Virus record (IMG/VR): IMGVR_UViG_3300037354_000009
Span: 1 to 62,685 of that record
DNA from: a virus
Lineage: Duplodnaviria; Caudoviricetes
DNA: 62,685 nucleotides
Direction: 5' to 3' (one strand)
The position numbers and the translations under genes were made by a program. Shown here one piece after another: positions 18,944-58,103 of the stretch. Position 1 is the first letter of the stretch; the number at the start of each line of letters is the position of its first letter. The notes beneath the pieces are model-generated. The model was not told the origin of the DNA. It was given only the letters and a program-made list of their open reading frames with translations, and made no database searches.

Positions 18944-18946
18944 GAT

Positions 18947-41949: not shown

Positions 41950-42284
41950 TGTTAGTCTGCGAGGCAGAGAGCAAGATCAATGCCCTGCAGGTGACCGAGG
42001 TATCCATCACCAACTTTCCGAACGCTGGTCTGGTAGTGAATGCCACCTACGCACTGATGGAGTATGATGTTAAAGCCAAGGCCGTGGTAGGAACTCACGG
42101 AAAGTGCACAGCGAACCCAAAGAACTGGTCTGAAGAGACCCTCCAACTAATGAAAGACCTTATGGTCGCAATGGAAGAAGATCTTACACCACGACACTTT
42201 GCAACCCAACGAAACCCAAGCATGGAGAACAAAAATGAGACGCGGACTGAGACTGGAAGACTCGAAGAAGTTGATCCCGTTTAA
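41949..42284 (+). CDS. hypothetical protein
   Basis: start ATG 41949 (TGATG coupling, RBS GGAGG). Confidence 0.6.
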   Translation: MLVCEAESKINALQVTEVSITNFPNAGLVVNATYALMEYDVKAKAVVGTHGKCTANPKNWSEETLQLMKDLMVAMEEDLTPRHFATQRNPSMENKNETRTETGRLEEVDPV

Positions 42285-43386: not shown

Positions 43387-43400
43387 CCACAACCCGTAGT

Positions 43401-43486
43401 GGGGGAGCAGAGTCTGCGCCACTAGCAGTGGTGTAGGTCAACAATCTTTTGACTTGCACACCTACTGGGCGCAGCTTTGTTCCCCC
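43401..43486 (+). ncRNA. 86-nt rod-like RNA hairpin upstream of Hfq-like gene
   Basis: GGGGGAGCAGAG/CTTTGTTCCCCC, CTGCGCC/GGCGCAG, internal loop, GTGTAGGTCAA/TTGACTTGCAC; G-U pairs work only on + strand. Confidence 0.6.
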
Positions 43487-43507
43487 TCGTTTCTCGAAAG
43501 GAATCGT

Positions 43508-43786
43508 ATGAAACCAAGCGACACTGCTGTACTCGAAGGCAAGGTAAAGAAGCTCGAGAAGGATGTAAACGAGCTCAAGGACTTGATCAACGTCCATGAG
43601 AACTGGAACAGTGAGATCAAGAAGATGTTCGGCAAGAAGGTAGATGTCGTAACCAGCACAGGCACCGTGCATAGGGGTGAGCTGCTCTGGTCAGATCGTT
43701 ACTGCATCTGCATCTTCCACGAAATCAGAAAGAACAGGGTCACCCTGAATAAAGGGGGAGTGGTATCTATCGAACTGTCCAAGTGA
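43508..43786 (+). CDS. Hfq/Sm-like RNA-binding protein with N-terminal coiled coil
   Basis: VDVVTSTGTVHRGELLWSDRYCICI matches Sm1 pattern; VTLNKGGVVSI matches Sm2 position; ATG 43508, RBS AAAGGA. Confidence 0.6.
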   Translation: MKPSDTAVLEGKVKKLEKDVNELKDLINVHENWNSEIKKMFGKKVDVVTSTGTVHRGELLWSDRYCICIFHEIRKNRVTLNKGGVVSIELSK

Positions 43787-43799
43787 GAGGAGCATTCCC

Positions 43800-45305
43800 A
43801 TGGCTGCGAACAAAGACCTAAGACTGATTGCAAAAATAGCCGACGTGGGCCCTTCTGGGATGAGGGCAGCAATAGATGCTGAGATCCGACCGGACCACAT
43901 CATGGACCTCGACGCACGCATGGTGTTCGAGTTCATGCTGGGGTACTACCACAATGCCAAGACCGGGGGTGATGTACCAACAAGGGACATGATCCGCGAC
44001 AGCTACTCAACGGTGGACCTCCCTGACAACGACCGTATGAAGATGTCCTCCGTCATAGAGGACTTCAAGAAGCACGACGCCAGTGCAAGGTTGGACAAGC
44101 TGTCCTCCTACCTACACGACTGGAGAGACAGACCTGACGAAGCACTGGTACATCTAGAACGAGAGATCAAAGAGATTGGCAAGCAGCGTAGAGGCAGCAC
44201 CGACATAGTCGTGGCTGACGCGATCTCTGCAGTCAAGTACATCTACGAAGAGAACAAGAACAGGGGCGTGCTCAAGGGCATACCCTATCCCTGGAAGATC
44301 TTAAATGATGAGACCAGGGGAATGCAGGATGGAGAGTACATCATCTTCTATGGTCGCCCAAAGTCTCTCAAGACCTGGGTAGCCTTGAGCATCTGCATGT
44401 ACGCCTACGACTATGCCAGCAGGAGAATCCTAATCTATACACGTGAGATGTCTCCAGAACAGATGATGGAGAGGTGCGTGTGCCTATTGATTGGGGCAGC
44501 CTACGACGACTGGAAGCACGGTCGTTTGGCATCTATCCCGCACCCTCATGGTGGGTCTATGGAAGACCACTTCTACTCCATGATGGAGACCATGAAGCAG
44601 GACGAAGTCACCTGCAGTCTAGAGACAGGAAAGAACAAGAGCCTCATCATCACCAGTGACCGACAGGACAGGAAGTACGGCGGTGGTGTGAAAGGACTAC
44701 GGCACAAGATCGAGGACTTCAAACCCGATCTAATCTTCGCAGATGCCGTGTACCTGATGAGGAATGACAGAGAGCAAGGGGCCCGGTCCTTGAAGTGGAA
44801 TGACCAGGCAGCTATCTCTCAAGACCTGAAGGACCTGGCACAGGACATGAAGCGTCCTATCCTGGCCACTCTCCAGGCCAACCGTGCCAGTGAGAAGGAG
44901 GACCAGCAGGGGCGGTCCACAACCAACATGTCCTTCTCAGACTCATACGCTCAGGACACAGACCTGGCCATTGAGATCATCAAGAAGAGGGTGGACAGGC
45001 ACCACAATGAGCTGGCCCTCTCCATCACAGCATCACGTGAAGCAAACATCGCAGGGTTCGCCATCAACGGAGACCCAGCTACCAACTTCACACAGCTGTA
45101 TCGTCCGGTACATGACGACGTAGGTGAGGTGAAGGTAGACGGGCAGGTAGTCATGGCACCGTTGATCTTCAATGACTCACGAGACATCAAGGAAGTGTTC
45201 TGGAAGAACTACATCCCGAAGTACATGCCAGACTACGACAGCAAGCCAGAGAAGGCCAAGGACAGGGCACGGAAGCCAGTCAACATACCTCGAGGTGGAG
45301 CATAG
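43800..45305 (+). CDS. dnaB: replicative DnaB-like (SF4) helicase
   Basis: GIPYPW..LN..T.GMQ.GEY, Walker A GRPKSLKT, EMS, LIFAD, LQANR, SDSYAQD. Confidence 0.85.
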   Translation: MAANKDLRLIAKIADVGPSGMRAAIDAEIRPDHIMDLDARMVFEFMLGYYHNAKTGGDVPTRDMIRDSYSTVDLPDNDRMKMSSVIEDFKKHDASARLDKLSSYLHDWRDRPDEALVHLEREIKEIGKQRRGSTDIVVADAISAVKYIYEENKNRGVLKGIPYPWKILNDETRGMQDGEYIIFYGRPKSLKTWVALSICMYAYDYASRRILIYTREMSPEQMMERCVCLLIGAAYDDWKHGRLASIPHPHGGSMEDHFYSMMETMKQDEVTCSLETGKNKSLIITSDRQDRKYGGGVKGLRHKIEDFKPDLIFADAVYLMRNDREQGARSLKWNDQAAISQDLKDLAQDMKRPILATLQANRASEKEDQQGRSTTNMSFSDSYAQDTDLAIEIIKKRVDRHHNELALSITASREANIAGFAINGDPATNFTQLYRPVHDDVGEVKVDGQVVMAPLIFNDSRDIKEVFWKNYIPKYMPDYDSKPEKAKDRARKPVNIPRGGA

Positions 45306-45308
45306 CAG

Positions 45309-46385
45309 ATGGCCCTCTCGGACATGATCTTAGAGTCCGCCAGGAAGCACCTACGGTTCATCAAGACCTCCGGTAACTACAACATCGGAGGTCCGTGTCC
45401 TTTCCACAAGTCCGGTCAAGAGAAGACCCCGTCGTTCTACATCAACCTGAACAACGGTCTGTACTACTGCCATGCCTGCGGAGAGAAGGGCACCTTCGCC
45501 CAGTTCCTCAAGGCTATGGGGGAGCAGTCAGAGAAGGTAGATCTTATCTTGCAGCTCTCCAGGGAGGCCAGGATAAAGCCTCCACCAAAAGCCACCAGCC
45601 TGCGGGGCACGCACTTCCTGAAGGAGAGCCTTCTCGGTGTGTTCGATTACTGCCCCATCAAGCTGGTGGACGATGGCTTTGATGAGGTCCTGCTGCAGAA
45701 AATGGACATAGGGTTCGACAAAGAGTACGAACGGATCACCTTCCCCATCCGGGACATCTACGGAGATCTGGTTGGTGTCTCTGGCCGCACGGTCACCGGC
45801 GCCTTCCCCAGGTACAAGGTCTACAAGAAGGAGGACCTGGTGCGCTTTGCATCAGACGATCCGATAGAGAAGTCTAAGTACGACCAGTACGAAATCAAGA
45901 ACCACTGCTTCCTGTGGAACATGCACAACGTATATCCGAAGCTCTTCTACACAGACCTGGACACGGTCATATTGGTAGAGGGCTACAAGGCATGCTTGTG
46001 GATGCTCCAGCAAGGATTTGAGAACACAGTAGCCCTGCAAGGGAGTAGAATGAGTGCCCTTCAAGAAGCCGCTCTGGCGAAGCATGATGGCTGGGTCATC
46101 CTCTTCCTAGACAACAACAAGGCTGGAAAGGAAGGTACAGCAGACACAGGAGACCGACTGATCGCAAGAGGACTACGTGTCCTAGTATGCAACTACCCAG
46201 ACGAATACGAAGACAATGCACAACCTGACAATCTAACCCAAAGCGAAATTCAACAAGTACTAGATCAAGCAACATCACTGATCGAATGGAAGGACAAACA
46301 TGGAATACTCACCAAATCGCAGCCTCTCGACGTCAATGCATGGGTACGTAACGAGCCGAACCACGGGGTCAGGCGGTCGGAGTAG
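45309..46385 (+). CDS. dnaG: DnaG-like primase (CHC2 zinc finger + TOPRIM)
   Basis: CPFH..EKTPSF...YYCHAC, RITFPIRD...VGVSGR, VEGY, LFLDNNKAG. Confidence 0.8.
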   Translation: MALSDMILESARKHLRFIKTSGNYNIGGPCPFHKSGQEKTPSFYINLNNGLYYCHACGEKGTFAQFLKAMGEQSEKVDLILQLSREARIKPPPKATSLRGTHFLKESLLGVFDYCPIKLVDDGFDEVLLQKMDIGFDKEYERITFPIRDIYGDLVGVSGRTVTGAFPRYKVYKKEDLVRFASDDPIEKSKYDQYEIKNHCFLWNMHNVYPKLFYTDLDTVILVEGYKACLWMLQQGFENTVALQGSRMSALQEAALAKHDGWVILFLDNNKAGKEGTADTGDRLIARGLRVLVCNYPDEYEDNAQPDNLTQSEIQQVLDQATSLIEWKDKHGILTKSQPLDVNAWVRNEPNHGVRRSE

Positions 46386-47418
46386 AGGGGCATCCCTCAA
46401 CATCAGATGGGGACACCGTTGGGCACCACCCAAGGGAATCCCTGCAAAGGTACGGCTTCTTCCTGGAGCCTACATGTCCAAGAGCGGGGACGAGGAGGCG
46501 AACTACTATCAGTACATCTCCTTCTACAGTGCCCGTACGAACAAGAGCTTCGTCACCTCCGCAGAATGGGAGCTGAGGAATGGTCGTCCAGAACGTACTG
46601 GTGGGGAGTGCCTAGGTTGGGATGCGTTTGACCAAGAGACATCAGAGGGTGTGGAATCAGCCCACCGTACTGTTTCTCGTCGTCTCATGCATGCCTTCAA
46701 TGGCATCCACCTGGACTGGTACCACCAGGTACCGGTAGAGCGTGATGGCAAGGCCGTGCTCTTCGAGAACGGACCACACAAAGGTGAGCAGATCACCAAC
46801 CAAGAACAATGCACCGGACGCAAGTGCGAGTACTGCTCTGCCAAGATCCCTAAGACCTTTGGCAAGAAAATCCACTGGAGCATGGGCCTCGGCCACCTAC
46901 AGAATCTTGTAGGAGCCATCGACGAGATCGAAAAGGACTGCGCTAACTGTGGTGGTACTGGCAGCGTAGAGAAGATCAGCTGTGACTGTGAAGGGTGTGG
47001 CAAGATCGTGCTGAACGTAGGCGACTTCAATATGGCCAACGAGAAGCAAGCCAACGAGTTCTACAAGCTCACAGGATCTCCATTCAAGTGCAAGTGCGGC
47101 CACACCGGCTGGCTGCTCACACAGCTCGAATGCAACAACGAGCAAGCCAAGTGCAGAGACCCAAAGCCACGGTCACTGTTCGACTGTGACATCGAAGTGA
47201 AGCGTCAAGGAGAAGGTTCTAGCTCGACCGTTCAGGTCGTCCGCTGGACACCTACTGTACTGTCCGAAGATCTCTTGGAGATGGCAAAGCCATACGACTT
47301 CTCTGAGATCTTTGCGCCAGACCCGTTGAAGATCCAAGCTGAAATCCTAGGGATCAGAGGCCCCAAGGACGACAAGCCGCAGTCCCGTGAGTACGGGAAA
47401 GCCAACTTCGACAAGTAG
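46300..47418 (+). CDS. putative single-stranded DNA-binding protein (gp32-like) with Cys-rich inserts
   Basis: KVRLLP and DIEVKRQGEGSSSTV motifs, many CxxC; between primase and polymerase, followed by terminator. Confidence 0.55.
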   Translation: MEYSPNRSLSTSMHGYVTSRTTGSGGRSRGASLNIRWGHRWAPPKGIPAKVRLLPGAYMSKSGDEEANYYQYISFYSARTNKSFVTSAEWELRNGRPERTGGECLGWDAFDQETSEGVESAHRTVSRRLMHAFNGIHLDWYHQVPVERDGKAVLFENGPHKGEQITNQEQCTGRKCEYCSAKIPKTFGKKIHWSMGLGHLQNLVGAIDEIEKDCANCGGTGSVEKISCDCEGCGKIVLNVGDFNMANEKQANEFYKLTGSPFKCKCGHTGWLLTQLECNNEQAKCRDPKPRSLFDCDIEVKRQGEGSSSTVQVVRWTPTVLSEDLLEMAKPYDFSEIFAPDPLKIQAEILGIRGPKDDKPQSREYGKANFDK

Positions 47419-47425
47419 TACTCGG

Positions 47426-47460
47426 AGCCCCGCTCTCATAAGGAGGGCGGGGTTTCTTTT
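47426..47460 (+). terminator. intrinsic terminator
   Basis: GCCCCGCTCTC-ATAAG-GAGGGCGGGGT then TTCTTTT. Confidence 0.8.
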
Positions 47461-47492
47461 CTCTCGATAACCTGCCACAGGAGGGCCGTGCA

Positions 47493-49427
47493 TTGCCTGG
47501 AATGATCCAAGACCTACCGCCAGTAACCTGGGTAGACAACCCAGAAGCGATGATGAAGTTCGTGAACCACGTTCGAGACACCAAAGAAGCAGCTATAGAC
47601 ACAGAGACCACTGGCCTCAACCGATGGAAAGATCATGTGGTCGTTTGGTCTGCCTGCCCAGAAGAGAACTCCAGATACTGCTTCAGCCGAGAGATGCTCA
47701 CCATCTTCGACAAGGAGCTGTCCCAAGACAGTAGCCTGACCTGGTGGCTGACCAACATGACATTCGACTTCTGCATGCTCACCAACTCTGGTGTGCGAGC
47801 ACCAACAGGCCCTGCCTACTGCACCCTGGCCATGGACTGGCTCCACGATGAGAACAGGTCAGGCTTCCACGGATTGAAGGACACTGCTCTTCACTACTGT
47901 GGCCTGAACATGATCAGCTTCAAAGACACCTTCGAGAAAGAGCACAAGGAGGATACGGTAGAGCAGAGGCTTCTCCGTGGACTCAAGAACGACTTCCGTG
48001 GTGCCATCAACTACGCCTCATTCGACGCCTACGCTACCTATCGAGTGAAGGACGTACTGAGAGACAAGCTAGCAGACGAGGAGATGGTGAACAGCCAGTC
48101 CTTGTGGGACTACTACCGTGAGATAGAGCTGCCATTCACAAGGGTACTGTTCAACCTGATCCGCCGAGGAATCATGGTGGACACCGGGTACCTCGAGGAC
48201 CTCAAACCCAAGCTTGCTGACACGGCCATGAGGCTGGAACGTCAGATCAACAAGATAGCAGGTAAAGAGATCAACCTGAAGAGCACCAAGCAGCTTCGTT
48301 GGCTGCTGTTCGAAAAAATGGGACTCAAGCCGATCAAGAAGACGGAGACACAGGAACCATCCACAGATGAGAGCGTGCTGTCCTTCTATGCGGAAGAGGG
48401 CATAGAGATATGCGAGCTCATCACCAAACTCAGGAAGGTGAACAAGATCAATGGCACCTATGTAGAGGGCTTGTCCAAGTGGGCAGACCACGATGGGCGC
48501 ATTCATCCTACTCTCACCCAGCACGTGACTGTCACTGGTCGTCTCAGCTCAGTAGACCCCAACCTCCAGAACGTACCCAAGCCGGACCATGATGATTACC
48601 ACCTGCGAGAAGCCTTCATTCCCAGGCACGGGTATGTCTTCGTCGTGTTCGACTACAGCCAGCTGGAGATGAGGCTGCTGGCACACGAGGCACACGATCA
48701 GAACATGATCGACGTCATCAATCGTGGCTGGGACATTCACGCAGGCACCGCCTGCATCATGTACAACTACGACTATGATGAGCTGAACAAGGCACTGAAG
48801 AAAAAGAAGAACCCTCAGCTTGAGCTCTCCGCACTGGAGAGAGCCATGTGTGATGCTAGGTCAGCAGCCAAGGCCATTGGCTTCGGTCTGTCCTACGGTG
48901 AGGGGCCCAAGAAGTTGGCGAAGAAGCTAGGCATCTCCTACGATGAAGCCCTAGTTAAGATCGAAGACTACTTCCGCCCGTACCCAGACATTCGTCAGTT
49001 CATCAACGATACCCACAGGCTAATCCGCACTGACCAGATGGTTCGCACTGTATCTGGACGTCCACGTAGATTCCCTGCCATGCACACGCTTGGCGGCATG
49101 TCGAAGTGGCACATGTCCGGTGCTCAGCGTGGAGAGCTGGCCAGGGCAGAGAGGCAGAGCGTGAACAGCCGCATCCAGGGGTCAGCAGCGGACGTAGCCA
49201 GGAGGGCCATGATCCACTGTGAGTATGACTCACGTCTAGCAAACCTAGGTGTACAGATGCTTCTTCAGATCCACGACGAACTCATCTTCGAGGTACCTGA
49301 AGAGTCTGTGAAGGAGGCTACGCCTATCATCAAGAACATAATGGAACACCCACTACCCTACGACCTCTCCGTTCCATTGGAGTGCGATGGAGGGTCTGGG
49401 TACAGCTGGGCCTCGGCAAAGGGGTAA
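47493..49427 (+). CDS. polA: family A DNA polymerase with 3'-5' exonuclease (no 5' nuclease)
   Basis: IDTETTG, TVTGRLSS..PNLQN, DYSQLEMR, RSAAKAIGFGLSYG, NSRIQGSAAD, QIHDEL. Confidence 0.95.
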   Translation: MPGMIQDLPPVTWVDNPEAMMKFVNHVRDTKEAAIDTETTGLNRWKDHVVVWSACPEENSRYCFSREMLTIFDKELSQDSSLTWWLTNMTFDFCMLTNSGVRAPTGPAYCTLAMDWLHDENRSGFHGLKDTALHYCGLNMISFKDTFEKEHKEDTVEQRLLRGLKNDFRGAINYASFDAYATYRVKDVLRDKLADEEMVNSQSLWDYYREIELPFTRVLFNLIRRGIMVDTGYLEDLKPKLADTAMRLERQINKIAGKEINLKSTKQLRWLLFEKMGLKPIKKTETQEPSTDESVLSFYAEEGIEICELITKLRKVNKINGTYVEGLSKWADHDGRIHPTLTQHVTVTGRLSSVDPNLQNVPKPDHDDYHLREAFIPRHGYVFVVFDYSQLEMRLLAHEAHDQNMIDVINRGWDIHAGTACIMYNYDYDELNKALKKKKNPQLELSALERAMCDARSAAKAIGFGLSYGEGPKKLAKKLGISYDEALVKIEDYFRPYPDIRQFINDTHRLIRTDQMVRTVSGRPRRFPAMHTLGGMSKWHMSGAQRGELARAERQSVNSRIQGSAADVARRAMIHCEYDSRLANLGVQMLLQIHDELIFEVPEESVKEATPIIKNIMEHPLPYDLSVPLECDGGSGYSWASAKG

Positions 49428-49428
49428 C

Positions 49429-49782
49429 ATGACGTACTCACAGCTGATCACGCAGCTATCTAAGAACACTGGGTACACCAAGAGAGAGCTACGTACAGTT
49501 CTAAGGAACCTAGCAAAGATCATCTCAGAGACCTTGTGTAGTGGTCAGCCAGTACAGTGGGATTCGGTGGGCCTCTTCTTCAATGCACCTGAAGGGGCCC
49601 ACCACGTCCGTAACTACAAGACTGGAGAGCGCTACTGGACCAAACCAAGACGCAGGGTAAAGTACAAACCTAGTACAGGATTAAGGAACAGCGTCAGAAG
49701 ATCAATCGAACTGTTCAAAGAAGAAGAACCCACTGAACGGTATCTACCAAAGGAAAAGGCCCATGGAAAAGTACGCAGTTGA
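49429..49782 (+). CDS. HU/IHF-like DNA-binding protein
   Basis: MTYSQLITQLS...GQPVQWDSVGLF...RNYKTGE...RRVKYKPS; start ATG 49429. Confidence 0.75.
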   Translation: MTYSQLITQLSKNTGYTKRELRTVLRNLAKIISETLCSGQPVQWDSVGLFFNAPEGAHHVRNYKTGERYWTKPRRRVKYKPSTGLRNSVRRSIELFKEEEPTERYLPKEKAHGKVRS

Positions 49783-49927
49783 GATCGACCCGAAGAAGGT
49801 GGAGCAAGAGAAGACGGCGGGTAAGAGCCCACCGAACAACCCCAGCTCCAACATTCCGCTAGACCCTGAGAAAGGATCTGAGCCGTTTGAAAAAGAGAGC
49901 GGAAAAAAAGCACCACAGACCACGTAA
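49763..49927 (+). CDS. small protein carrying EQEKTAG motif (54 aa, not in ORF track)
   Basis: MEKYAVEIDPKKVEQEKTAGKSPPNNPSSNIPLDPEKGSEPFEKESGKKAPQTT; RBS AAGGA. Confidence 0.6.
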   Translation: MEKYAVEIDPKKVEQEKTAGKSPPNNPSSNIPLDPEKGSEPFEKESGKKAPQTT

Positions 49928-50549
49928 GCTAAGTGCCGACAAAGAAAAAGAGATCCTAGAGGGTCAAGACTACTTGTGCGCTATGTGTAGCATTCCCCTC
50001 AAGAGTGAACGGTACCCAGAGGGTAAGAAACGCTGTCACGATCACGATCACAGAACAGGTAAAACTCGTGGGTTTCTTTGCACAAAATGCAACACGACTT
50101 TGGGGGCGCTTGGAGACAACGTCCCCGAGGTCAAAGAGACTACCGAACGCGCTCTGGGCTATCTAACTAGATCAGAGGGTCCGTGGATCTACAATGGCAA
50201 AACGTACACAACAAAGTCAGCAACTATCTACGCCTTTCTGGACGATGAAAAAGCGTACACAGGGGACGTACTGTTCCCTACCCTGGAGACAGCTAGGAAA
50301 AATCTACCGTTTCCAGTCTACCACGGAGACTTCCACGCCAGAGTAGATAACTACTGCAACAAGACAAGAACAGATCAAACAGGTCAGTACACAATAAGTA
50401 GACCTCTTCTCAAATCCGGGAAGTGCGGAAGAGTGTACACCACTGCACTAATCACACCTGAAAATAAGGAAGGCCATGACACCAAAAAAGAAGAGCAAAG
50501 AAAAGACAGCATCCAAGACATCCAGCAACCAAGCATATCTAGTATTTGA
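49887..50549 (+). CDS. endonuclease VII-like (His-Me) nuclease
   Basis: QDYLCAMC...CHDHDHRTGKTRGFLCTKCNTTLG. Confidence 0.8.
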   Translation: MKKRAEKKHHRPRKLSADKEKEILEGQDYLCAMCSIPLKSERYPEGKKRCHDHDHRTGKTRGFLCTKCNTTLGALGDNVPEVKETTERALGYLTRSEGPWIYNGKTYTTKSATIYAFLDDEKAYTGDVLFPTLETARKNLPFPVYHGDFHARVDNYCNKTRTDQTGQYTISRPLLKSGKCGRVYTTALITPENKEGHDTKKEEQRKDSIQDIQQPSISSI

Positions 50550-50820
50550 AGACACGTACGACCCACAAGGTGAGCCCTCTATGTATGATGGAGCCTGCGA
50601 AGAGGGAGCGTTACACGTCGGCGATGCCACTATGGTATTGGCAACGTCTCCAAGAGAAGCAGCGAAGGCGTACAGAGGCGACATACAGGGGCAGTCAAGG
50701 CTAGTGGTAGCTACCGTTAGTAGCTTTACAGCATTCTCCACAGACGAACCAGAAGGACCCAGGCCATTTTTGCTAGTAGAAGAAGAGTCCTACGGAGGAG
50801 CGAGCGATGCCAAAGGCTAA
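50476..50820 (+). CDS. hypothetical protein
   Basis: 114 aa, RBS AAGGAAGG. Confidence 0.55.
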   Translation: MTPKKKSKEKTASKTSSNQAYLVFEDTYDPQGEPSMYDGACEEGALHVGDATMVLATSPREAAKAYRGDIQGQSRLVVATVSSFTAFSTDEPEGPRPFLLVEEESYGGASDAKG

Positions 50821-52117
50821 GAAAGCGCCTGCCCAAGAGGAATTCACCCCCATAGATCGTAATAACATCCCAAGGGTGGACACCGACGAACTCCTGGATT
50901 CTCTTCAGGCGAAGCTTGGAGGAGAGGGGGTGGTCATGCAGAGAGGTGAGGAGGTTGAAGGTCGCTTCGATCTCCGCAGACCCAGTGGCATCCTTCAACT
51001 AGACCTCGCTTGTGGTGGAGGACTTCCAGCAGGTGGCCTGTCTCAGATAGACGGGCTGGATGGCATCGGCAAGAACCTGCTCCTCAATCACTTCCTGGCC
51101 AAGCAGCAGCGCATCCACAAGGAGAACACCAACCTAGCCATGGTGTGCTTCGAGGGAGGCTTCGACAAGCTGTTTGCTCGAGCCCTGGGCGTGAGGGTGG
51201 CTCTATCTGACTACGAGATAGAGGGCATAGGTAGGGAGAGGCACCTCAGAGGACAGCCTGAGCTCACTGAAGAAGAAGTAGCTGACTTGAAAGATCAGAT
51301 TGGCAACTTCCACATCTTCCGTGGTGCTGCTGCAGAAAAGATCTTGGAGGGCGTGGCTGACTGCATAGCCAGTAACTCCTACCAGATCATAGGCATAGAC
51401 TCGTGGGACGCCATGCTCACCCAGTCCGAGGACAACAAAGATCTAGAGGACAACGCCAAGGTAGCAGACGCGTCCAACGTACAGACTCGCTGGATGAGGA
51501 AGGTGTTTGGTGCCCTTGCTCCCCAGAAGATCTGTCCGTCCTGCGGAAGCAGACCGCTAGACTTCAAGGTCTTCGGGAAGGGTGGCTACGAGTACAAGTG
51601 CGGTAACTCCAAGTGCGGATGGAAGGGACAGAAGCCCTTCTTGTGGGAGAATGAGACCACCATCATTGGCCTCCGACAGGTACGTGCGAACATGAAAGCG
51701 TACGGGCACGCCAGAGAGTACAGGACCACTGGTGCCTATGCCCTCCGTCACGGCAAGATGATCGACATCCAGCTCCGCAAGGGCAAGCCCATCACCATCA
51801 AGGACAAGGACGTAGGCAAGGAGATTGTGTGGGAGCTGACCAAAGGGAAAGCAGGTACTCACGAGGGCCTGACTGGTATCTACAGCTACTACTTCAATCC
51901 CCCACAGATCGACATAGCAGCAGACCTGGAGAACTACTGCACCGCCAATGAGGTCATCACATATGGCGGTCCTAAAGCAGGGTTCATGCTCGGTGATATG
52001 AAGCTGGGCAACAAAGAAGAGATGCAGAGGCGCATCGAAGAGGACGAAGACTTCCAATCTCTTCTCAGGATCGAAGCCATCAAACATGCAGGACAGGGGC
52101 ACGTGAGGTACAAGTGA
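50807..52117 (+). CDS. recA: RecA/UvsX-like recombinase with zinc-ribbon insert
   Basis: PSGILQLDLACGGGLPAG, Walker A GLDGIGKN, IIGIDS, QVRAN...TTGAYALRH; CPSC...C...C insert. Confidence 0.85.
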   Translation: MPKAKKAPAQEEFTPIDRNNIPRVDTDELLDSLQAKLGGEGVVMQRGEEVEGRFDLRRPSGILQLDLACGGGLPAGGLSQIDGLDGIGKNLLLNHFLAKQQRIHKENTNLAMVCFEGGFDKLFARALGVRVALSDYEIEGIGRERHLRGQPELTEEEVADLKDQIGNFHIFRGAAAEKILEGVADCIASNSYQIIGIDSWDAMLTQSEDNKDLEDNAKVADASNVQTRWMRKVFGALAPQKICPSCGSRPLDFKVFGKGGYEYKCGNSKCGWKGQKPFLWENETTIIGLRQVRANMKAYGHAREYRTTGAYALRHGKMIDIQLRKGKPITIKDKDVGKEIVWELTKGKAGTHEGLTGIYSYYFNPPQIDIAADLENYCTANEVITYGGPKAGFMLGDMKLGNKEEMQRRIEEDEDFQSLLRIEAIKHAGQGHVRYK

Positions 52118-52656
52118 AAGGCGTGGAACTGGAACTAGGTATTCGATACGTGGGCTTTGGTCTGTCTTGCACCAACTGTGGAAAGGTCAGAGAATCCACA
52201 CGCTACGTACTTAGGGACGCACAGTCGGGCACCCTCCTGCAGGAGGCTCGACTGTGTGACCAGTGCCAAGACAAGGGACACGTGATCAAGTTCAACGTGG
52301 CATCCACAGACCCACGAGCAGCAGTACGAGCTGCTAGAAGAGTAAAGCTATCCAGGAACATGGAGAGAGGGCTAGCCCTGGACGTTGGAGGGGTAGTACA
52401 GCCAGGGTCAGGGAATGGGGATGACAAGGATGACGTTCGGGTCCATGGGGAGTGGCGCTTCGAACACAAGTACACAGACAGCGTCAAGAGCTACAAACTC
52501 GAGGCCACTGACTTGGCTGCTGTTGCAAGGCACGCCAAATTGGCGGGTGAGAAACCAGCTCTGGTGTTGAACTTCCGAAAACTGGGGAAGAGGTTCGTGA
52601 CACTCCCCTACGACCTCTTCTTGGAGATCATGGAGAAGATACGTGGAAAGAACTGA
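52114..52656 (+). CDS. PD-(D/E)XK Holliday-junction resolvase-like nuclease with N-terminal zinc finger
   Basis: CTNC/CDQC; QPGSG...DDV...FEHK. Confidence 0.65.
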   Translation: MKGVELELGIRYVGFGLSCTNCGKVRESTRYVLRDAQSGTLLQEARLCDQCQDKGHVIKFNVASTDPRAAVRAARRVKLSRNMERGLALDVGGVVQPGSGNGDDKDDVRVHGEWRFEHKYTDSVKSYKLEATDLAAVARHAKLAGEKPALVLNFRKLGKRFVTLPYDLFLEIMEKIRGKN

Positions 52657-53521
52657 GCTACTCACAATTGCAGACAGCAAGGACTTCCGTAAGGAGGTCC
52701 TGCAGCACATAGTAATCAAAGATCGTGTAGAGGCGATGCTAGAGGACATGAACGCAGAGCCCGTAGAGCTGCGGGGTGAACTGAGAATCGGAGACGCACC
52801 AAGAAGGAAGCACATCTTCCATGCGTCCGAGATTGGCAGACTCACTGGTAAGACCCTAGACAAGAAGTACCCAATGGGCTGTGGCAGGGCCCTCTACTAT
52901 GGGTACGTGGGAGCTAAGTCTGAGAACTCCTTCGATCCTAGACTCCGCCGCATCTTCGACAATGGTTCGGGTATCCACCTGCAACTGCAGATGTACATGC
53001 ACCACTATGCTAAGAAGCACAAGAAGACGGACAAGTTCCAGGACGAGGTGGGTATCAGCCCAGAGAACAATGCGATGGCAGATAGCTACGATATCTCTGC
53101 CCACATGGACGGCCTATGGGAGTTCACTACTCCCACCATCCACGCCAGAGCAGGACTAGAGATCAAATCCATCAATGACGAGGGCTTCAAGGCCACCAAA
53201 GGCGCACACCAGGAACACATTATACAGGGCACCGTCTACCAGGCATGCCTGGACCTGCCTCTCATGGTGTTCCTGTACTACAACAAGAACGACTCCAGCC
53301 TTGCTGAGTACGTTCAGGTGTTCGATGAGGATAGGTGGAACTCGATCAAAGAGAAGCTCGACTATGTTCGTGGGTGTGCCATGAAAGGAACCGAGCCTCC
53401 ACAAGAGATCACCTTTGGTTGCAGGAACTGCAAGTACGCAGCTGTCTGCAAGCCACCTAAGATGGGACGCGGAGGCCCGTCAGCCCTCAGCACACTCCGC
53501 ACCAGCAGGAAGGGACAATAA
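52643..53521 (+). CDS. Cas4/AddB-like PD-(D/E)XK exonuclease
   Basis: HASE, C.RALYY, G.GIH, HMDG, LEIKS, Q...Y, C-terminal CRNCKYAAVC. Confidence 0.75.
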   Translation: MERTELLTIADSKDFRKEVLQHIVIKDRVEAMLEDMNAEPVELRGELRIGDAPRRKHIFHASEIGRLTGKTLDKKYPMGCGRALYYGYVGAKSENSFDPRLRRIFDNGSGIHLQLQMYMHHYAKKHKKTDKFQDEVGISPENNAMADSYDISAHMDGLWEFTTPTIHARAGLEIKSINDEGFKATKGAHQEHIIQGTVYQACLDLPLMVFLYYNKNDSSLAEYVQVFDEDRWNSIKEKLDYVRGCAMKGTEPPQEITFGCRNCKYAAVCKPPKMGRGGPSALSTLRTSRKGQ

Positions 53522-54123
53522 TGCCAACCACTGAAGCAGAGTACACACACGGCGTGAACATGTACGCCCAAGCCGTGGACAAGGGTGACGCTGACATGAC
53601 CCTGATGGGCTTCCCACAGGCAGAGCGCCCAAAAAGGGGTGAAGAGCTAGCGGACAGACCACAGCTACCAGAACGCATCAGCGATCTGAACATGTCACAG
53701 TTGTTGGACCTATTGACCTGGTACACCGCCTGGTTCGACTACGCCACCAACCTGATGCCAAAGGCCAGGTCGATGAAGACCTCTCTGGAATCCGCCAGAG
53801 ACTTCGCCTGGGCTAAGATCAGAAGAGAGAAGAGGGACGAGAAAACTGTCTCTGACAAGGACGACGCAGCTCGTACCGATCTGAGGTACATCAAGCTCAA
53901 CGCCGACCTGGAGACGGCAGACTACAGATACAACATGCTGAAGGCCATCTCAGAGGGCCTGTACAGAGACATAGAAACCATCTCCCGTGCCATCACAGGA
54001 CTGTCAGATCGATTCAACAGTGAGGGGCACAGGTACACTGGGGAGAAGATAGCTAGCAAGCACGGTGTTGGGCAGTCACACCCAGGCATGAACGTACTAT
54101 CCAGGTTCAGGAAGAAGTCATGA
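53521..54123 (+). CDS. helical hypothetical protein (possible UvsY-like recombination mediator)
   Basis: 200 aa coiled-coil pattern with KTVSDKD; in recombination cluster. Confidence 0.5.
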   Translation: MPTTEAEYTHGVNMYAQAVDKGDADMTLMGFPQAERPKRGEELADRPQLPERISDLNMSQLLDLLTWYTAWFDYATNLMPKARSMKTSLESARDFAWAKIRREKRDEKTVSDKDDAARTDLRYIKLNADLETADYRYNMLKAISEGLYRDIETISRAITGLSDRFNSEGHRYTGEKIASKHGVGQSHPGMNVLSRFRKKS

Positions 54124-54569
54124 GCTACCTGAAGGTGTGGATAGATCGTCTACCACCCTCATCCAACAAGATCTATGTGAGCGTCCCAGGAAAGGGGAGG
54201 TTCCTATCGCCACAGGCGTCAGCCTTCAAGGTGTACGCCATGCGGACGATCCAACAGCAGGGCAGGGTAGCCTTCCTAGGCATGAAGCAGAACGTACCAT
54301 ACGAGTTACGCCTGATAGTGTTCTTCGATCAAGTTGAGTACCTGAAATCTGCGAAGGGAACACGGTATAAGCGTATAGATCTTAGCAACCAAGTTAAGCT
54401 GATCGAAGATACGGTTGCAGCAGCAACAGGCATAGATGACTCGCATAACTTCAGGATGGTCTTGGAGAAGCACTGCGATCCAGACCACCCAGGTATGTAC
54501 GTCACCCTGCTACCCATCTCAGAAGATCGAGTTGGGCTCACCAAGGAGCAGTACGATGCAGACACGTAA
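54120..54569 (+). CDS. rusA: RusA-like Holliday junction resolvase
   Basis: LPPSSNKIY...DLSNQVKLIED...GIDDS. Confidence 0.75.
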   Translation: MSYLKVWIDRLPPSSNKIYVSVPGKGRFLSPQASAFKVYAMRTIQQQGRVAFLGMKQNVPYELRLIVFFDQVEYLKSAKGTRYKRIDLSNQVKLIEDTVAAATGIDDSHNFRMVLEKHCDPDHPGMYVTLLPISEDRVGLTKEQYDADT

Positions 54570-54918
54570 CTACGAAGAGATGAACGTAACAGAGCTGGTT
54601 GCGCTAGCCAGAAGGGCAGGCATCCTGTCGGCCCACCGTGGTATGGGAAGAGAGCTTCTGACAGGGATGCTCACAGAGGAAATAGATCCTGCGGACGTAG
54701 ACAACCCAGACCCAATAGACGAAGAACGAGAGCTCATGCTCTACCTACAAGAGACCCAACCGGACATGATCTTGGGACAGCTGAAGTGTAAATCAGAACA
54801 CTACTTCTGCCCTCTCTGTCCGCCCGCTAGGGTAGCCATGTGTGCCGTCATATCCAGCTCACAAGGATTCAGGGAACGCAACAAGGCCGACATGCTACAT
54901 GGCATTCGGAGGCCGTGA
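54556..54918 (+). CDS. protein with N-terminal Rho-N/HEH-like motif and Cys cluster
   Basis: YEEMNVTELVALARRAGI; start ATG 54556, RBS AAGGAG. Confidence 0.55.
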   Translation: MQTRNYEEMNVTELVALARRAGILSAHRGMGRELLTGMLTEEIDPADVDNPDPIDEERELMLYLQETQPDMILGQLKCKSEHYFCPLCPPARVAMCAVISSSQGFRERNKADMLHGIRRP

Positions 54919-55148
54919 TGCCTTCCTGTGGGTCATGTGGGAATCTAAGAACCTGCTACGTAGTTGATGAAAAGAAGCTGGCTTCGGGATACTATTGCGG
55001 TTCCTGGGTCAGTGCTGCCGAAAGTGTGCTGACTGCACGTGACCAGATCAATGAAGCGTTCGGACCTTGGGCACTCAAGTTCGAACTGCCACCTACTGCT
55101 ATGAAGAGTGTTGTTTCGAGAATGAGGAGAAGACACAAAAATGGCTAG
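54918..55148 (+). CDS. small Cys-rich protein
   Basis: MPSCGSCGNLRTC...YYC; TGATG coupling, RBS GGAGG. Confidence 0.55.
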   Translation: MPSCGSCGNLRTCYVVDEKKLASGYYCGSWVSAAESVLTARDQINEAFGPWALKFELPPTAMKSVVSRMRRRHKNG

Positions 55149-55635
55149 CACCTATACCCGTGAAGAGCTGGAGAACCTGCGCCGATCTGAGATTCGGACC
55201 ATTGCAGTCAGCGATGGATTCGACATGTCCCCCAAGGACGCAGTGAGTGCTCCATCCAAGGACCTGATCGAGTACATCCTATCCAAGCAGGGTGGGGAGA
55301 AGAAGGCTGCAGGTGGCAAGAAGGCTGCTGCCAAGGCTGCTCCTGTCTCCGAGCCGGAAGAGACACCAGAGGAGGCCCCAGAAGAGGCTCCAGCAGCAAC
55401 CAAGACCTCCAAGAAGGAGGAAGCAACCACCGTCACCAGGATCAACAAGCTCGGTGAAGCACTGGACACTGTCCAGGCTGAGATGAAGAGCGAGATTGGC
55501 GACGTCAAGCAGCAGGTCTATGTGCTCATGGCCATGGTCAAGCTGATGCTCGGCACCACCGACCTCGAGCCCAAGGACATCGACGAAGCAATCGAAGCCG
55601 CCAGTGCGGAGTTCGAAGAGCAGGGAAAAGAGTAG
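55141..55635 (+). CDS. Rho-N/HEH-like protein ending in a GGGAAAA slippery site
   Basis: TYTREELENLRRSEIRTIA; acidic linker; coiled coil; ends CAG GGA AAA GAG TAG. Confidence 0.7.
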   Translation: MASTYTREELENLRRSEIRTIAVSDGFDMSPKDAVSAPSKDLIEYILSKQGGEKKAAGGKKAAAKAAPVSEPEETPEEAPEEAPAATKTSKKEEATTVTRINKLGEALDTVQAEMKSEIGDVKQQVYVLMAMVKLMLGTTDLEPKDIDEAIEAASAEFEEQGKE

Positions 55636-55826
55636 GCCGGGATAGCCTAGGCCCTCAGTCTCCACCTCCGGGTACACTCAGTACCTTCAGACAGGAGGAG
55701 CTAGAACTGATGGGCTTTGAGGAGCTGCGAGACATGCTAGATGGGTATGTGATCTACAAACCAGAGAACCTATCCGCTACCAAAGAGCAGCTCCTCGGGC
55801 TTGCCCGTAAGCACTCAGTACGTTAG
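55623..55826 (+). CDS. -1 frame extension of upstream gene (or independent 38-aa ORF from ATG 55710)
   Basis: -1 frame open from slippery site to TAG 55824-55826; encodes TFRQEELELMGFEELRDML, similar to upstream N-terminus. Confidence 0.5.
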   Translation, partial: GKRVGRDSLGPQSPPPGTLSTFRQEELELMGFEELRDMLDGYVIYKPENLSATKEQLLGLARKHSVR

Positions 55827-55830
55827 ATCG

Positions 55831-55863
55831 GAAGGGCCCCCAAACCAGGGGGCCTTTTCTTTT
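55831..55863 (+). terminator. intrinsic terminator ending replication operon
   Basis: GGCCCCC-AAACCA-GGGGGCC then TTTTCTTTT. Confidence 0.85.
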
Positions 55864-55868
55864 AACCA

Positions 55869-55898
55869 TGAAAAAGGCGCGTCATGTACGGGTATAAG
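55869..55898 (+). promoter_or_regulatory. phage promoter class A
   Basis: TGAAAA-N18-TATAAG (GGGTATAAGGAT). Confidence 0.75.
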
Positions 55899-55916
55899 GA
55901 TTGTGGAGGACACCTT

Positions 55917-56198
55917 ATGAAACCTATTGTGGAGAGATCAGTCCGACTTGTTTCGCACAGAAACCTCACAGGAGTGACTATGGGTACGACCAGGGGAAAG
56001 AACGGAGTGCCGCCAATGCATGCTGTAGGCAGCGTCCCCCCAACCAGATCTTCTAAGGTCATGGCAGATGCCATCATAGCCAGGACACCGACCAAAGATC
56101 GATACGGCATCGACTACGTGCTTCGTCACGGGATCAACTCAGACGTTGACTCTCTTGCTGTCCAGCACGAACTCGACCAGGCTAACCTGGAAGAGTAG
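55917..56198 (+). CDS. hypothetical protein
   Basis: start ATG 55917, RBS GGAGGACAC. Confidence 0.65.
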   Translation: MKPIVERSVRLVSHRNLTGVTMGTTRGKNGVPPMHAVGSVPPTRSSKVMADAIIARTPTKDRYGIDYVLRHGINSDVDSLAVQHELDQANLEE

Positions 56199-56199
56199 C

Positions 56200-56382
56200 A
56201 TGCCACAAAAGAGGGAATGGAAAACCTCTCCGTGGATCAAGCTGAGACCCAAGTTTCTAGAAGACTACTACAGGAGCTACAAGCCACTGGTGCAACGGAT
56301 AGCTGTAGTCGCTCTACCCAGGCTACAAGAAGTGATGAAGATAGTGGATAAGTCCACCCATCAGACTAGCGAAGGAGGGTAG
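56200..56382 (+). CDS. small basic hypothetical protein
   Basis: MPQKREWKTSPW...; ATG 1 nt after upstream stop. Confidence 0.5.
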   Translation: MPQKREWKTSPWIKLRPKFLEDYYRSYKPLVQRIAVVALPRLQEVMKIVDKSTHQTSEGG

Positions 56383-56394
56383 TCTGATGGCAAT

Positions 56395-56467
56395 GGGCCT
56401 GTAGCTCAACGGTCAGAGCAGGCGGCTCATAACCGCTCGGTTCGGGGTTCGAATCCCTGCAGGCCCA
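56395..56467 (+). tRNA. tRNA with CAT anticodon, most likely tRNA-Ile2 (lysidine type); CCA not encoded
   Basis: acceptor GGGCCTG/CAGGCCC, D arm GCTC/GAGC, anticodon GGCGG-CTCATAA-CCGCT, T arm GGTTCGAATCC; C4,C5 acceptor pattern as in bacterial Ile2 tRNAs. Confidence 0.9.
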
Positions 56468-56469
56468 CT

Positions 56470-56520
56470 GAGAATCCCCACAGCCAACACTGGTTGGACT
56501 GCACTGTGGGGATTTTCTTT
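56470..56520 (+). terminator. hairpin/terminator after tRNA
   Basis: GAGAATCCCCACAG/CTGTGGGGATTTTC then TTT. Confidence 0.7.
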
Positions 56521-56522
56521 AG

Positions 56523-56551
56523 GCAAAAGATGATCACATTCGGGGTATAAG
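56523..56551 (+). promoter_or_regulatory. phage promoter class A
   Basis: GCAAAA-N17-TATAAG (GGGGTATAAGGA). Confidence 0.75.
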
Positions 56552-56555
56552 GACT

Positions 56556-56750
56556 TTGGTGAGGATGCATTCTGCCTTCTGTCCTTTCGAAGTGTGTGAA
56601 CATAGTGATCCTCCATCACCGTGATCCTTGGGGATGCATCCTCACCAATTTCTTTGCAGTCGAGGGCCGTTCTGGTTGGCATCAAGCAGGCTTCTTTGGG
56701 CAGAAAACACACAGGCATCGGCCCCTGCATAGTGCAGCTGTGTGTTTTCG
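56556..56750 (+). ncRNA. candidate structured RNA (~195 nt)
   Basis: perfect 15-bp stem 56556-56570/56634-56648; perfect 12-bp stem 56703-56714/56738-56749; GGGCCG/CGGCCC potential pseudoknot; no credible ORF. Confidence 0.6.
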
Positions 56751-56756
56751 TTAGCC

Positions 56757-58103
56757 TTAGATCAGCGGCTGGTTAGCCAAGATCTTCCTGACGAGGCTCG
56801 AAGCCTTGCGTACGTCCGTCACTTCTCGCTTTGCCTCGGCTATGGGGTTGGACGGAGACAAAGGTTCCAGTGGCTCGAACATGGCGTTGGCTGCCGACTG
56901 CAGTACTCCAGGAGGAGCATCCCCCTCACTGGACTTGATCTTACCTGGCATCTTGAAGTGAATAGGTGGAGCGTCACTGCCAAGGGTAGCTGGGTCAGCA
57001 TCGAACACATCGAAGGCCCGCTTCTGCAACAGAGCCGCTACCTTGATCAGTGTCTTCTTCTTAGCCACCAACTCACGGAGCTTGTCCATGGTGACTGGAT
57101 GGATGCTGTCGAAGAACTTGGGGTTGTCGTAGTGGTCGAGGTAAGCCTGCTTGGCCTCATCCTCCTCATCAAACCCCAGCATCACCTTGTCCTCGTCGTA
57201 CTTACCAGACTCTGGCTTCTTCTGGTGAACCACGAAGGCCATGTCAGCGTTCACGTTGGGGCCCAGGAACACATCCAGGCCCTCTCCGTCCGCTCCCTTG
57301 GTGCCTTCGATGTAGCCGTAGGCGTAACGGAAGATGGTCTTCCAGGGGTGGCCGTCCTTGTCCACACCACGTCTGATGCTGCCAGCCGTGTGCTCTATAG
57401 CGATGGGGAGGCCCTGGAAGTCCGTCTTACCTTCGAGGGTGAAGGCATGCTTTACCAGCGCCTGGGAGAGCTTCTGAAGGGCTGGGTTGGTGTGTGCCTT
57501 GACCCAGGCAGAAGCCACAGCAGCACGCTTCTTGAGGCCCTTGGCGATGCGTATACGCTCCCCTTGTGGCTCCTCTGGTTCAGCCTCAGAGATGGGGTTG
57601 TCTTCCATCTCACCGGTGCCCACACCTGCCCCACGTACACCCACATCGGAGGTGGTTTGAAGGCCACCACCTGGCTGCGGTGGGCTCAGATTATCTGCAC
57701 CACGGTGGGCTACGTCGATGGGGGCATCAGTGTTCCTGGCCATGGACCGCTCTCGAGTACCAGCGTCGGTAGCTCGCTCATCCTTTGTGGAGGGGTTGAG
57801 GCGGCTCTGGTAGGTGGCATCCATATCCTCGAGGCCGAAGGTGGAATAGTTGGCTCGCTTGACTACGTGACCTGTCTTCCAGATCTGACGGATGTTGGGC
57901 ATGATCTTAGTGCCATCCCCTAGGAACCCTCCTCCATCAAAGTCCGCCCCCTTCTCCACAGCACCAGCAGCATCCCCCTGCACAGCATCCATACGAGTAC
58001 CAGCAAGCTGATGACCAGACAGCTCTTGTGCCTGGTCTTCAGCCATCAAGTCACGATCTTCGTGCTTGGCTTTGCGTGGTTGATCAAACGTCAGTACTCC
58101 CAT
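56757..58103 (-). CDS. virion-associated protein with inorganic pyrophosphatase-like domain
   Basis: FQGLPIAIE..GSIRRG...YGYIEGTKGADGEGLDVFLGP...YDEDKVMLGF...AYL.HY, the pattern of the pyrophosphatase-like domain of phage polyvalent proteins; K-x-A motifs on both sides. Confidence 0.75.
   Translation of the reverse strand: MGVLTFDQPRKAKHEDRDLMAEDQAQELSGHQLAGTRMDAVQGDAAGAVEKGADFDGGGFLGDGTKIMPNIRQIWKTGHVVKRANYSTFGLEDMDATYQSRLNPSTKDERATDAGTRERSMARNTDAPIDVAHRGADNLSPPQPGGGLQTTSDVGVRGAGVGTGEMEDNPISEAEPEEPQGERIRIAKGLKKRAAVASAWVKAHTNPALQKLSQALVKHAFTLEGKTDFQGLPIAIEHTAGSIRRGVDKDGHPWKTIFRYAYGYIEGTKGADGEGLDVFLGPNVNADMAFVVHQKKPESGKYDEDKVMLGFDEEDEAKQAYLDHYDNPKFFDSIHPVTMDKLRELVAKKKTLIKVAALLQKRAFDVFDADPATLGSDAPPIHFKMPGKIKSSEGDAPPGVLQSAANAMFEPLEPLSPSNPIAEAKREVTDVRKASSLVRKILANQPLI

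Follow-up and report, generated by a model that had tools for sequence, protein, structure and literature searches.

The DNA analyzed here, referred to as the window, is the whole of IMG/VR virus record IMGVR_UViG_3300037354_000009 (positions 1-62,685), and its source is a large uncultured peat phage. CheckV puts the completeness of the record at 33%, which corresponds to a phage of ~190 kb, and the group consists of peat phages of roughly 190 kb. A replication module of plus-strand genes (38055-56198) encodes helicases, primase, DNA polymerase, endonuclease VII, a UvsX-like recombinase, a Cas4-like nuclease, and RusA, while the structural genes, including those for the major head protein and the large terminase (17103-18914), form minus-strand blocks. 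No sign of lysogeny genes was seen in the window. Between the plus-strand replication block and a convergent minus-strand head-gene block lies a 288-bp gap, and this gap holds the subject of this report, a predicted noncoding RNA of ~195 nt (56558-56752, plus strand). The promoter class, 5' stem, and terminator of the unit are conserved in two independent relatives, and no conserved plus-strand open reading frame (ORF) was found in it among the three lineages compared. On this comparison, the promoter-driven, structured unit given in a preliminary description of the locus is very probably a genuine, conserved noncoding transcription unit.

Anatomy of the RNA unit

The last gene of the plus-strand replication block encodes tRNA-Met (CAT) (56395-56468, plus strand; ARAGORN; Rfam tRNA, 70 bits). 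It is followed by an intrinsic terminator on the same strand (56473-56520), with the stem AATCCCCACAG / CTGTGGGGATT and then a T run (-28.2 kcal/mol, z -6.6). As transcription of the tRNA unit would stop at this terminator, the RNA unit downstream requires a promoter of its own. A promoter of a phage-specific class is present at 56523-56553 (plus strand), with a -35-like GCAAAA (56523-56528), a 17-nt spacer, and the -10 hexamer TATAAG (56546-56551) inside GGTATAAGGA (56544-56553). Position +14 of this class, 7 nt past the -10 hexamer, is a purine in 23 of 26 sites, and we therefore take G56558 as the start of the RNA; its end would lie in the T run of the downstream terminator.

The 5' end of the RNA forms one arm (56557-56572, plus strand) of a 16-bp basal stem whose other arm lies at 56632-56647 (plus strand). 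The two stems of the preliminary description were all present letter by letter: stem 1 as TTGGTGAGGATGCAT (56556-56570) and ATGCATCCTCACCAA (56634-56648), with exactly 63 nt between them, and stem 2 as GAAAACACACAG (56703-56714) and CTGTGTGTTTTC (56738-56749), enclosing CGGCCC (56719-56724). Stem 2 is real but is simply an intrinsic terminator, with A tract, stem, and T tract. This terminator (56703-56752) is bidirectional, with terminator-like hits in the scan and folds of -22.9 kcal/mol on the plus strand and -24.0 kcal/mol on the minus strand. It lies 8 nt from the stop codon of the convergent head gene and ends both the RNA and the convergent head-gene operon. That gene (56757-58103, minus strand) encodes a 448-aa virion/minor-head-like protein with an inserted InPase domain (PF18823, 3.9e-42; PHROG minor head protein). 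The 3' stem is thus the terminator of the convergent gene; the 5' part of the unit is nevertheless conserved.

Relatives and conservation

As a query, the 448-aa head protein gave 55 loci in IMG/VR, of which 53 share only the widespread InPase-domain region. Two loci, L002 and L003, match it over residues 20-448 (69% identity in the best segment and 65% in the full alignment); they are identical across the RNA region, and both stand for a 168-kb relative that is 89% complete, referred to as G001. A metagenome scan returned G001 again together with two further contigs, L078 (77% identity, 11-kb contig) and L079, the latter being unusable for the RNA site as its contig breaks off within the head gene. 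The upstream 164-aa gene led to a fourth relative (L275/G002), the contig of which stops before the RNA site. The independent versions compared were therefore three: the window, G001, and L078. No relative was recovered from viral contigs with the 764-aa neighboring protein as bait, and distant blastn of 56380-56780 against phage GenBank records matched the tRNA only (63 records), with no record covering at least 80% of the query. Four DNA-contig runs yielded no variants of the RNA, since it was only to the tRNA that other contigs matched.

All three lineages have the same order of elements: terminator, class promoter, TTTGGTGAGGAT(G/A)CAT, loop, complementary arm, and hairpin plus T run, with the head-gene stop codon 8 to 10 nt behind the last hairpin. 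A strong terminator hairpin stands both upstream and downstream of the RNA unit in each. The upstream terminators occupy the same place with other stem letters (-22.9 kcal/mol, z -5.1, in L078; -13.9 kcal/mol, z -6.4, in G001), and the downstream counterparts likewise differ in their stem letters; the latter are usable both ways in the window and L078, whereas in G001 the T run is good only for transcription in the direction of the RNA. The predicted RNAs are ~195 nt (window), ~150 nt (L078), and ~95 nt (G001) long. The stem arms are near-invariant while the terminator stems change freely between lineages.

In the alignment of the three sequences, 47 of 48 cells of the 16-bp stem are paired; 10 pairs are invariant, including the 9 lowest, 3 vary on one side, and 2 vary on both sides. 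The first 13 nt of the 5' arm are invariant except for one G/A change, and the pairs that change on both sides are 16/94 (GC to AU) and 21/89 (CG to UA). When the stem partner was slid by 1 to 3 columns, pairing fell to 33 to 50% of cells. The identity of the 5' arm between lineages is 81 to 94%, compared with 59 to 72% for the last 300 nt of the adjacent gene, and the neighboring proteins are only 65 to 77% identical to those of the relatives. Stem 1 is more than a chance inverted repeat, as shown by its retention, with compensating changes, in both independent relatives. Four stem cells are U-G, which is C-A on the other strand, so that the plus strand pairs in 47 of 48 cells versus 44 of 48 for the minus strand; this makes the plus strand the better paired one, in agreement with the direction of the promoter. 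Single-sequence folds also favor the plus strand in the window and G001. The fold of 56523-56760 reached -82.7 kcal/mol (z -2.66) on the plus strand and -69.6 kcal/mol (z -1.51) on the minus strand, and that of 56553-56756 (plus strand) reached -73.7 kcal/mol (z -2.63).

The linker between the stem domain and the terminator (56650-56702, plus strand) is unconserved, with ~14 nt in L078 and ~3 nt in G001. It holds GGGCCG (56664-56669), for which a pseudoknot with CGGCCC in the loop of stem 2 had been proposed. This pairing is confined to the window and does not demonstrably exceed chance: the terminator loop of G001 has 4 nt, and that of L078 is unrelated. The alternative partners suggested for TGCAG are also peculiar to the window, the terminator loops of the relatives being unrelated. 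As neither the linker nor the GGGCCG/CGGCCC pairing is conserved, both are probably chance or filler, judging from the alignment. A scan of the RNA against the window for exact complementarity of at least 11 nt gave a sole long match, of 14 nt (56676-56689 versus 27051-27064), which is identical to the coding (minus) strand of a 2,055-aa gene, with ~0.09 expected by chance by our own arithmetic. We rejected it as a target because it lies in the unconserved linker and pairs with the noncoding strand of a minus-strand gene.

A phage-specific promoter class

The preliminary description had assigned the promoter to a "class A," and site counts confirm such a class. With up to 1 mismatch, GGTATAAGGA occurs at 7 sites in the window, all on the plus strand, versus 2.03 expected, and 0 of 100 shuffles reach 7; in G001, GGTATAAGNA occurs at 19 sites versus 3 for a reversed control. 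The consensus of 26 aligned sites (window and G001) is TG(C/A)AAA, a 17-nt spacer, and TATAAG, or TG(C/A)AAA-N17-GGTATAAGGA as a motif. A is found at -18 and -17 in 24 of the 26 sites, G at -20 in 13, T at +13 in 22, and G at +14 in 15. The -10 hexamer TATAAG fits the sigma-70 -10 element at 5 of 6 positions; TG(C/A)AAA takes the place of the usual upstream element.

Behind 15 of the 26 sites, a Shine-Dalgarno (SD)-like motif and start codon open an ORF of at least 35 codons within 110 nt; these include the site at 37601 (first replication-block gene) and the site at 55891 (gene before the tRNA). The other 11 sites have no such ORF, and among them are the RNA unit and a second unit, here called the 18947 unit, of both phages. 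Judged by these counts, the GGTATAAGGA-type promoter is a real class that also heads replication-module genes, and it is kept at the syntenic site of the RNA unit in L078 and G001. The form TG(C/A)AAA-N17-GGTATAAG(G/T)A could be used to annotate early/middle transcription units in this peat-phage group.

The sites of the class in the window (16045, 16547, 18936, 30343, 37601, 55891, and 56544) are all on the plus strand, and 4 of the 7 lie inside the minus-strand late block. At such sites early/middle transcription may run antisense to late genes.

Family searches and the 18947 unit

Rfam 15, which includes 6S, C4, RsaE, self-cleaving ribozymes, and Y RNA, was run against the whole window, and only tRNA passed its gathering score. 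At E values up to 10, the region 56380-56800 gave, besides tRNA, only eukaryotic microRNA and small nucleolar RNA rows (best, MIR861, 25.5 bits versus 70). A covariance model of the stem domain built in this analysis, R1, found only three cognate sites among 39 sources, with one copy in the complete G001 record. In viral contigs the exact 21-nt stem pattern had 0 matches, and the promoter-plus-stem pattern was found only in the two G001 records. The looser arm-gap-arm pattern occurred in 76 viral stretches and at least 120 genome stretches; R1 had 0 matches at E values up to 0.01 on the 74 viral loci with this pattern outside G001. A 29-bit R1 match among the 80 genome loci listed (L225) proved to be an unrelated inverted repeat without a promoter. 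The RNA is a new RNA family of a known kind of RNA.

The preliminary description had grouped the RNA with that of the 18947 unit, as both stems open with TTGGT. The opening is indeed common to the two in the window, but the kinship did not hold up: the G001 counterpart of the 18947 unit opens with TTGTGACAAA, and the covariance model finds nothing at 18947 at E values up to 10. The two share TTGGT because of the downstream preference of the promoter, T(+13) G(+14). Beyond their promoter class and a hairpin where the transcript begins they have nothing in common, and the 18947 unit represents a different RNA.

The 18947 unit (18915-19090, plus strand) is the second ORF-less class-promoter unit of the window and is antisense to the large terminase leader. 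It is itself conserved, with syntenic promoters at 18936 and at G001:65125 (C1, minus strand, locus L062). The hairpins at its transcript start differ in stem sequence between the two phages (GGUUGA/UCAACC against GACAAA/UUUGUC) and have the same CUUA loop.

A conserved block in the loop

The loop enclosed by the basal stem is 63, 57, and 45 nt long in the window, L078, and G001, respectively, and its sequence has largely diverged. A block yCUCCAWC is kept in each of the loops, as UCCUCCAUC in the window, ACCUCCAAC in L078, and UUCUCCAACCUCC in G001. In the window it includes the loop CCUCC (56610-56614) of an apical hairpin, GUGAU-CCUCC-AUCAC (56605-56619, plus strand). CUCC lies in an apical hairpin loop in the minimum free energy folds of all three RNAs, although the stems differ (GUGAU/AUCAC, ACAUAGUG/CAUUGUGU, and GGUU/AACC). 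Its unpaired probability by partition function is 1.00 in the window and L078 and 0.69 to 1.00 in G001. CCUCC forms a single apical loop in the window and in L078, whose loop reads CAUAGUGACCUCC, and G001 has CUCC plus CCUCC.

CCUCC is the core of the anti-SD tail of 16S rRNA, and the phage's own genes use strong GGAGG sites. CAU is found 4 to 6 nt upstream of CUCC in each of the three RNAs, and with this spacing the loop region is complementary to an entire translation start region. The unit has, on the evidence of its sequence, three features expected of a gene for a base-pairing small RNA (sRNA): its own putative promoter, a rho-independent terminator, and a conserved, accessible seed. Two other readings of the transcript were set aside. 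A plus-strand micro-ORF starting at ATG 56566 was rejected, since G001 has ATA and then an early stop, and a CsrA-type GGA site in the 5' arm was dropped, being paired and single.

Proposed mode of action and candidate targets

From this anatomy we infer transcription of an RNA, its two ends, and the following sequence of steps. The class promoter would start transcription at about G56558, and the first nucleotides of the RNA would pair at once with 56632-56647 in a 15- to 16-bp stem that seals the 5' end. The enclosed region would then fold so that the CCUCC/CUCCA tract stays unpaired at the tip of the apical hairpin, and transcription would end at the bidirectional terminator that also serves the convergent head operon. 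The RNA would most likely act by base pairing, with its loop docking on the SD sequence of an mRNA. Because the apical stem has CAU 4 to 6 nt upstream of CUCC, pairing would extend across the spacer and the AUG, and translation initiation would be blocked. For the combined statement, that the unit is conserved and noncoding and also pairs through its loop, we regard the sequence-based case as evenly balanced.

To find candidate targets, duplexes were scanned over 269 candidate start regions in the window and 351 in G001. The best duplex of the apical region outside its own locus (-30.5 kcal/mol) was with the start region GGAGGACACTATG (16096-16108, plus strand) of the gene at 16106-16411, and the identical start region of the gene at 16615-17043 (16605-16617, plus strand) gave -23.2 kcal/mol. 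These two genes are neighbors with the start region GGAGGACACUAUG in common, each is driven by a promoter of the same class as that of the RNA, and among the genes of the window they would be the best candidates. Within the window, GGAGG-N0-3-CACTATG has three occurrences versus 0.03 expected: twice as the starts of 16106 and 16615, and once as the complement of the loop. A specific version of the base-pairing model has the RNA as a translational repressor in the role of T4 RegA, its CCUCC loop and the adjoining CAUAGUG pairing with GGAGGACACUAUG and silencing 16106 and 16615 as infection proceeds; we rate it as unlikely. In this version, unlikely as a whole, the repressor RNA would be made where the replication module ends, from a promoter of the early/middle class.

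The two genes belong to a plus-strand island of three genes (15492-17043) inside a minus-strand structural block, and it is these two that are driven by class promoters (16045 and 16547). Their identical 15-nt start region is CAGGAGGACACTATG.

A number of results weigh against this interpretation. The evidence base for conservation is three independent sequences, and the sequencing runs checked for the sequence included no RNA run. The covariation check advised in the preliminary description did yield the two pairs that change on both sides, but the observed covariation is reached by 63 of 500 column shuffles (n = 3 sequences). The single A-C mismatch cell of the stem is in L078, in which the antisense strand also folds better (-53.1 kcal/mol, z -5.8, versus -44.0 kcal/mol, z -4.5, for the plus strand). 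A canonical sigma-70 scan (TTGACA-like -35 and TATAAT-like -10 elements, 16 to 18 nt apart) gave 0 sites in 55500-57500; the promoter status of the unit therefore rests on the phage-specific motif, and the factor that reads this motif would not be a textbook sigma-70 with a TTGACA -35 element. The duplex with 16106 (-30.5 kcal/mol) is barely beyond the best of 10 shuffled loops (-30.2 kcal/mol). The GGAGG-N0-3-CACTATG pattern was picked after the match had been seen, and its two start regions are one duplicated 15-mer; since both sequences are start-region-like, the extra coincidence is the 4-nt spacer only. G001 has no orthologue of either the 16106 or the 16615 protein, and the best duplex of the G001 RNA with its 351 start regions (-31.1 kcal/mol) falls among those of its shuffles (-26.4 to -34.6 kcal/mol), none being outstanding. 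Finally, the complement of the loop is a well-spaced SD sequence and ATG in all three lineages, which a small gene on the minus strand would explain equally well.

If the base-pairing model is true, target start regions in L078 would read GGAGGUCACUAUG or near, with loop and leader changing together. Few sRNAs of virulent or large phages have a known function, and this unit offers a testable seed (the CCUCC apical loop) and two candidate targets. An anti-ribosome-binding-site mechanism, if true, would mean RNA-based translational timing in an uncultured phage lineage.

Alternative explanations

The elements could be punctuation only, insulating the convergent early and late modules or providing a 3' stem for RNase III or exonuclease protection of read-through late mRNA, with no role in trans. 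The unit sits exactly at the point of convergence, stem 2 is the terminator of the head operon, and the long stem can form on either strand (better on the minus strand in L078). Hairpins at the transcript start also follow about 9 of the 26 class promoters, but they are not significant across the class (Mann-Whitney p 0.08). With two terminators already insulating the modules, this role would not call for a promoter in between, but all three lineages have kept one. Insulation also leaves unexplained why the stem arms are near-invariant when the terminator stems are free to change, and why the loop, diverged elsewhere, has kept an unpaired CUCCA block. We consider punctuation alone rather unlikely.

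A second alternative is a tiny gene on the minus strand, translated from late read-through transcripts and regulated in cis by the plus-strand RNA, which would be an antisense RNA similar to P22 sar or lambda OOP. In the window this would be a 58-codon ORF (56427-56603, minus strand), for which the apical loop region (GGAGGATCACTATG, 56601-56614), as its reverse complement, supplies the SD sequence GGAGGA and the ATG. GGAGG(A), a spacer of 4 to 6 nt, and an ATG are present on the minus strand in all three lineages, the ATG being in frame with a common block, M(H/Y)PHQ(S/N)(P/T)YT, read by hand, and two real genes have nearly the same start region. This block, however, is the complement of the stem arm and the promoter -10 box, and all three substitutions within it are nonsynonymous. 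The ORFs have 58, 17, and 24 codons in the window, L078, and G001, with unrelated N- and C-terminal parts and tails that differ in length and frame, and the ORF of the window runs antisense through the promoter, a terminator, and the tRNA gene. G001 provides further points in its favor: the terminator has a weak T tract when read on the minus strand, and the 24-codon ORF ends immediately ahead of the next terminator. In the window and L078, on the other hand, a good terminator for minus-strand transcripts separates the late operon from the ORF. Among proteins of 31 to 102 aa, no homologue of the 58-aa product was found. Nor do the products suggest a type I toxin-antitoxin pair, as those of 58, 17, and 24 aa share only a hydrophilic 9-residue block and have no homologue. 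Such a gene appears improbable, and we rank a regulator directed against start regions above a minus-strand start region; a cis-antisense link of both is possible and would resemble P22 sar.

The preliminary description had also proposed a ribozyme, a decoy, or a 6S-like regulator, and a self-cleaving ribozyme, a 6S-like RNA polymerase decoy, or another protein decoy would fit the structure of this RNA, with its long stem and large interior, and the 9 invariant lowest stem pairs could mark a protein-binding site. The Rfam searches lend this no support, with no family but tRNA at gathering score and only eukaryotic microRNA and small nucleolar RNA rows at E values up to 10, and the proposed pseudoknot is not conserved. 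The 45- to 63-nt interior with little conserved sequence is unlike a catalytic core. 6S RNA forms a long, rod-like helix in which a large central bubble imitates an open promoter; the folds here lack rod and central bubble and have one 15- to 16-bp closing stem around a branched 45- to 63-nt interior, with no second closing helix. We hold any of these to be very improbable. A replication-origin transcript, in which transcription from the promoter behind the replication genes would supply a primer or R-loop RNA, as happens at T4 oriF and oriG, would suit a promoter without an ORF next to replication genes but is highly improbable for a strongly self-folded RNA that ends at a terminator, in a region of 48% G+C with no visible A+T-rich unwinding element and no repeats or iterons noted.

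Comparison with known small RNAs

Among phage RNAs, the candidate base-pairing RNA invites comparison with the c4 antisense RNA of P1/P7, which pairs by loop sequences around the ribosome-binding site of its target and blocks translation in dependence on its secondary structure (PMC12197685). Both are short, structured, phage-encoded RNAs with a loop-exposed sequence, the pairing being a candidate one here. c4 acts on the ant operon of a temperate phage, whereas the present RNA has a candidate target in a large uncultured phage and no Rfam match. c4 is processed from the same transcript as its target. P22 sar and lambda OOP are promoter-to-terminator phage transcripts of 68 to 77 nt that act by pairing, sar covering the ant start region (PMC12197685). 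Both overlap an established gene on the opposite strand, whereas only an unconserved mini-ORF lies opposite the RNA described here.

In bacteria, the Cuckoo/alpha-r14 sRNAs of Alphaproteobacteria are chromosomal and consist of 2 to 4 adjacent hairpins, each with the 9-nt motif CCUCCUCCC (PMC4615179). They resemble our RNA in a hairpin loop that displays an anti-SD-like C/U tract on stems of varying sequence. The present RNA differs in being phage-borne and in having one apical CCUCC/CUCC loop inside a long closing stem, and the 9-nt motif is absent from the three RNAs. In Firmicutes, sRNAs of the RsaE/RoxS and RNAIII types use unpaired C-rich loop motifs to pair with SD sequences and repress translation. 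Their motifs are UCCC/CCCC in another architecture, unlike those found here, and again there was no Rfam match.

For virulent phages, PMC4933390 describes sRNA1 and sRNA2 of PAK_P3 as ~100-nt intergenic RNAs that adjoin tRNA genes and were found by transcriptome sequencing, and it names the T4 band C and D RNAs as the only earlier virulent-phage examples, the function of all these RNAs being unknown or guessed (translational silencing). The RNA of the window is likewise intergenic and next to a tRNA gene; it is a predicted RNA and is set beside those of PAK_P3 by description. A literature search on phage-encoded small RNAs with an anti-SD sequence found no pertinent paper.

Further observations at the locus

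The InPase domain (PF18823, residues ~224 to 345) is inserted in the head protein of the window and apparently also in that of L078, where the match spans residues 1 to 448. The G001 orthologue (L003 3959-4873, plus strand, 304 aa) is without exactly this segment. In G001 only, the head-gene stop codon is overlapped by an ATG (TAATG), the start of a 43-codon ORF (L003 4871-5004, plus strand) that covers the entire RNA in antisense; at this place the sequence is TAAGG in the window and L078.

An extra stretch lies between the tRNA-Met gene and the terminator in front of the RNA in L078 (5110-5600, minus strand; ~450 nt) and is also found in L275 (5065-5583, plus strand), whose contig runs out within it behind the tRNA-Met gene. 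The stretch begins with a long hairpin whose arms covary between the two (GCGGCAGTACGTATG... versus GCGGCAGTACATG...). The tRNA of L078 is cut off after the variable region; ARAGORN reports none there, and the Rfam tRNA model scores 28.1 bits against a threshold of 29.

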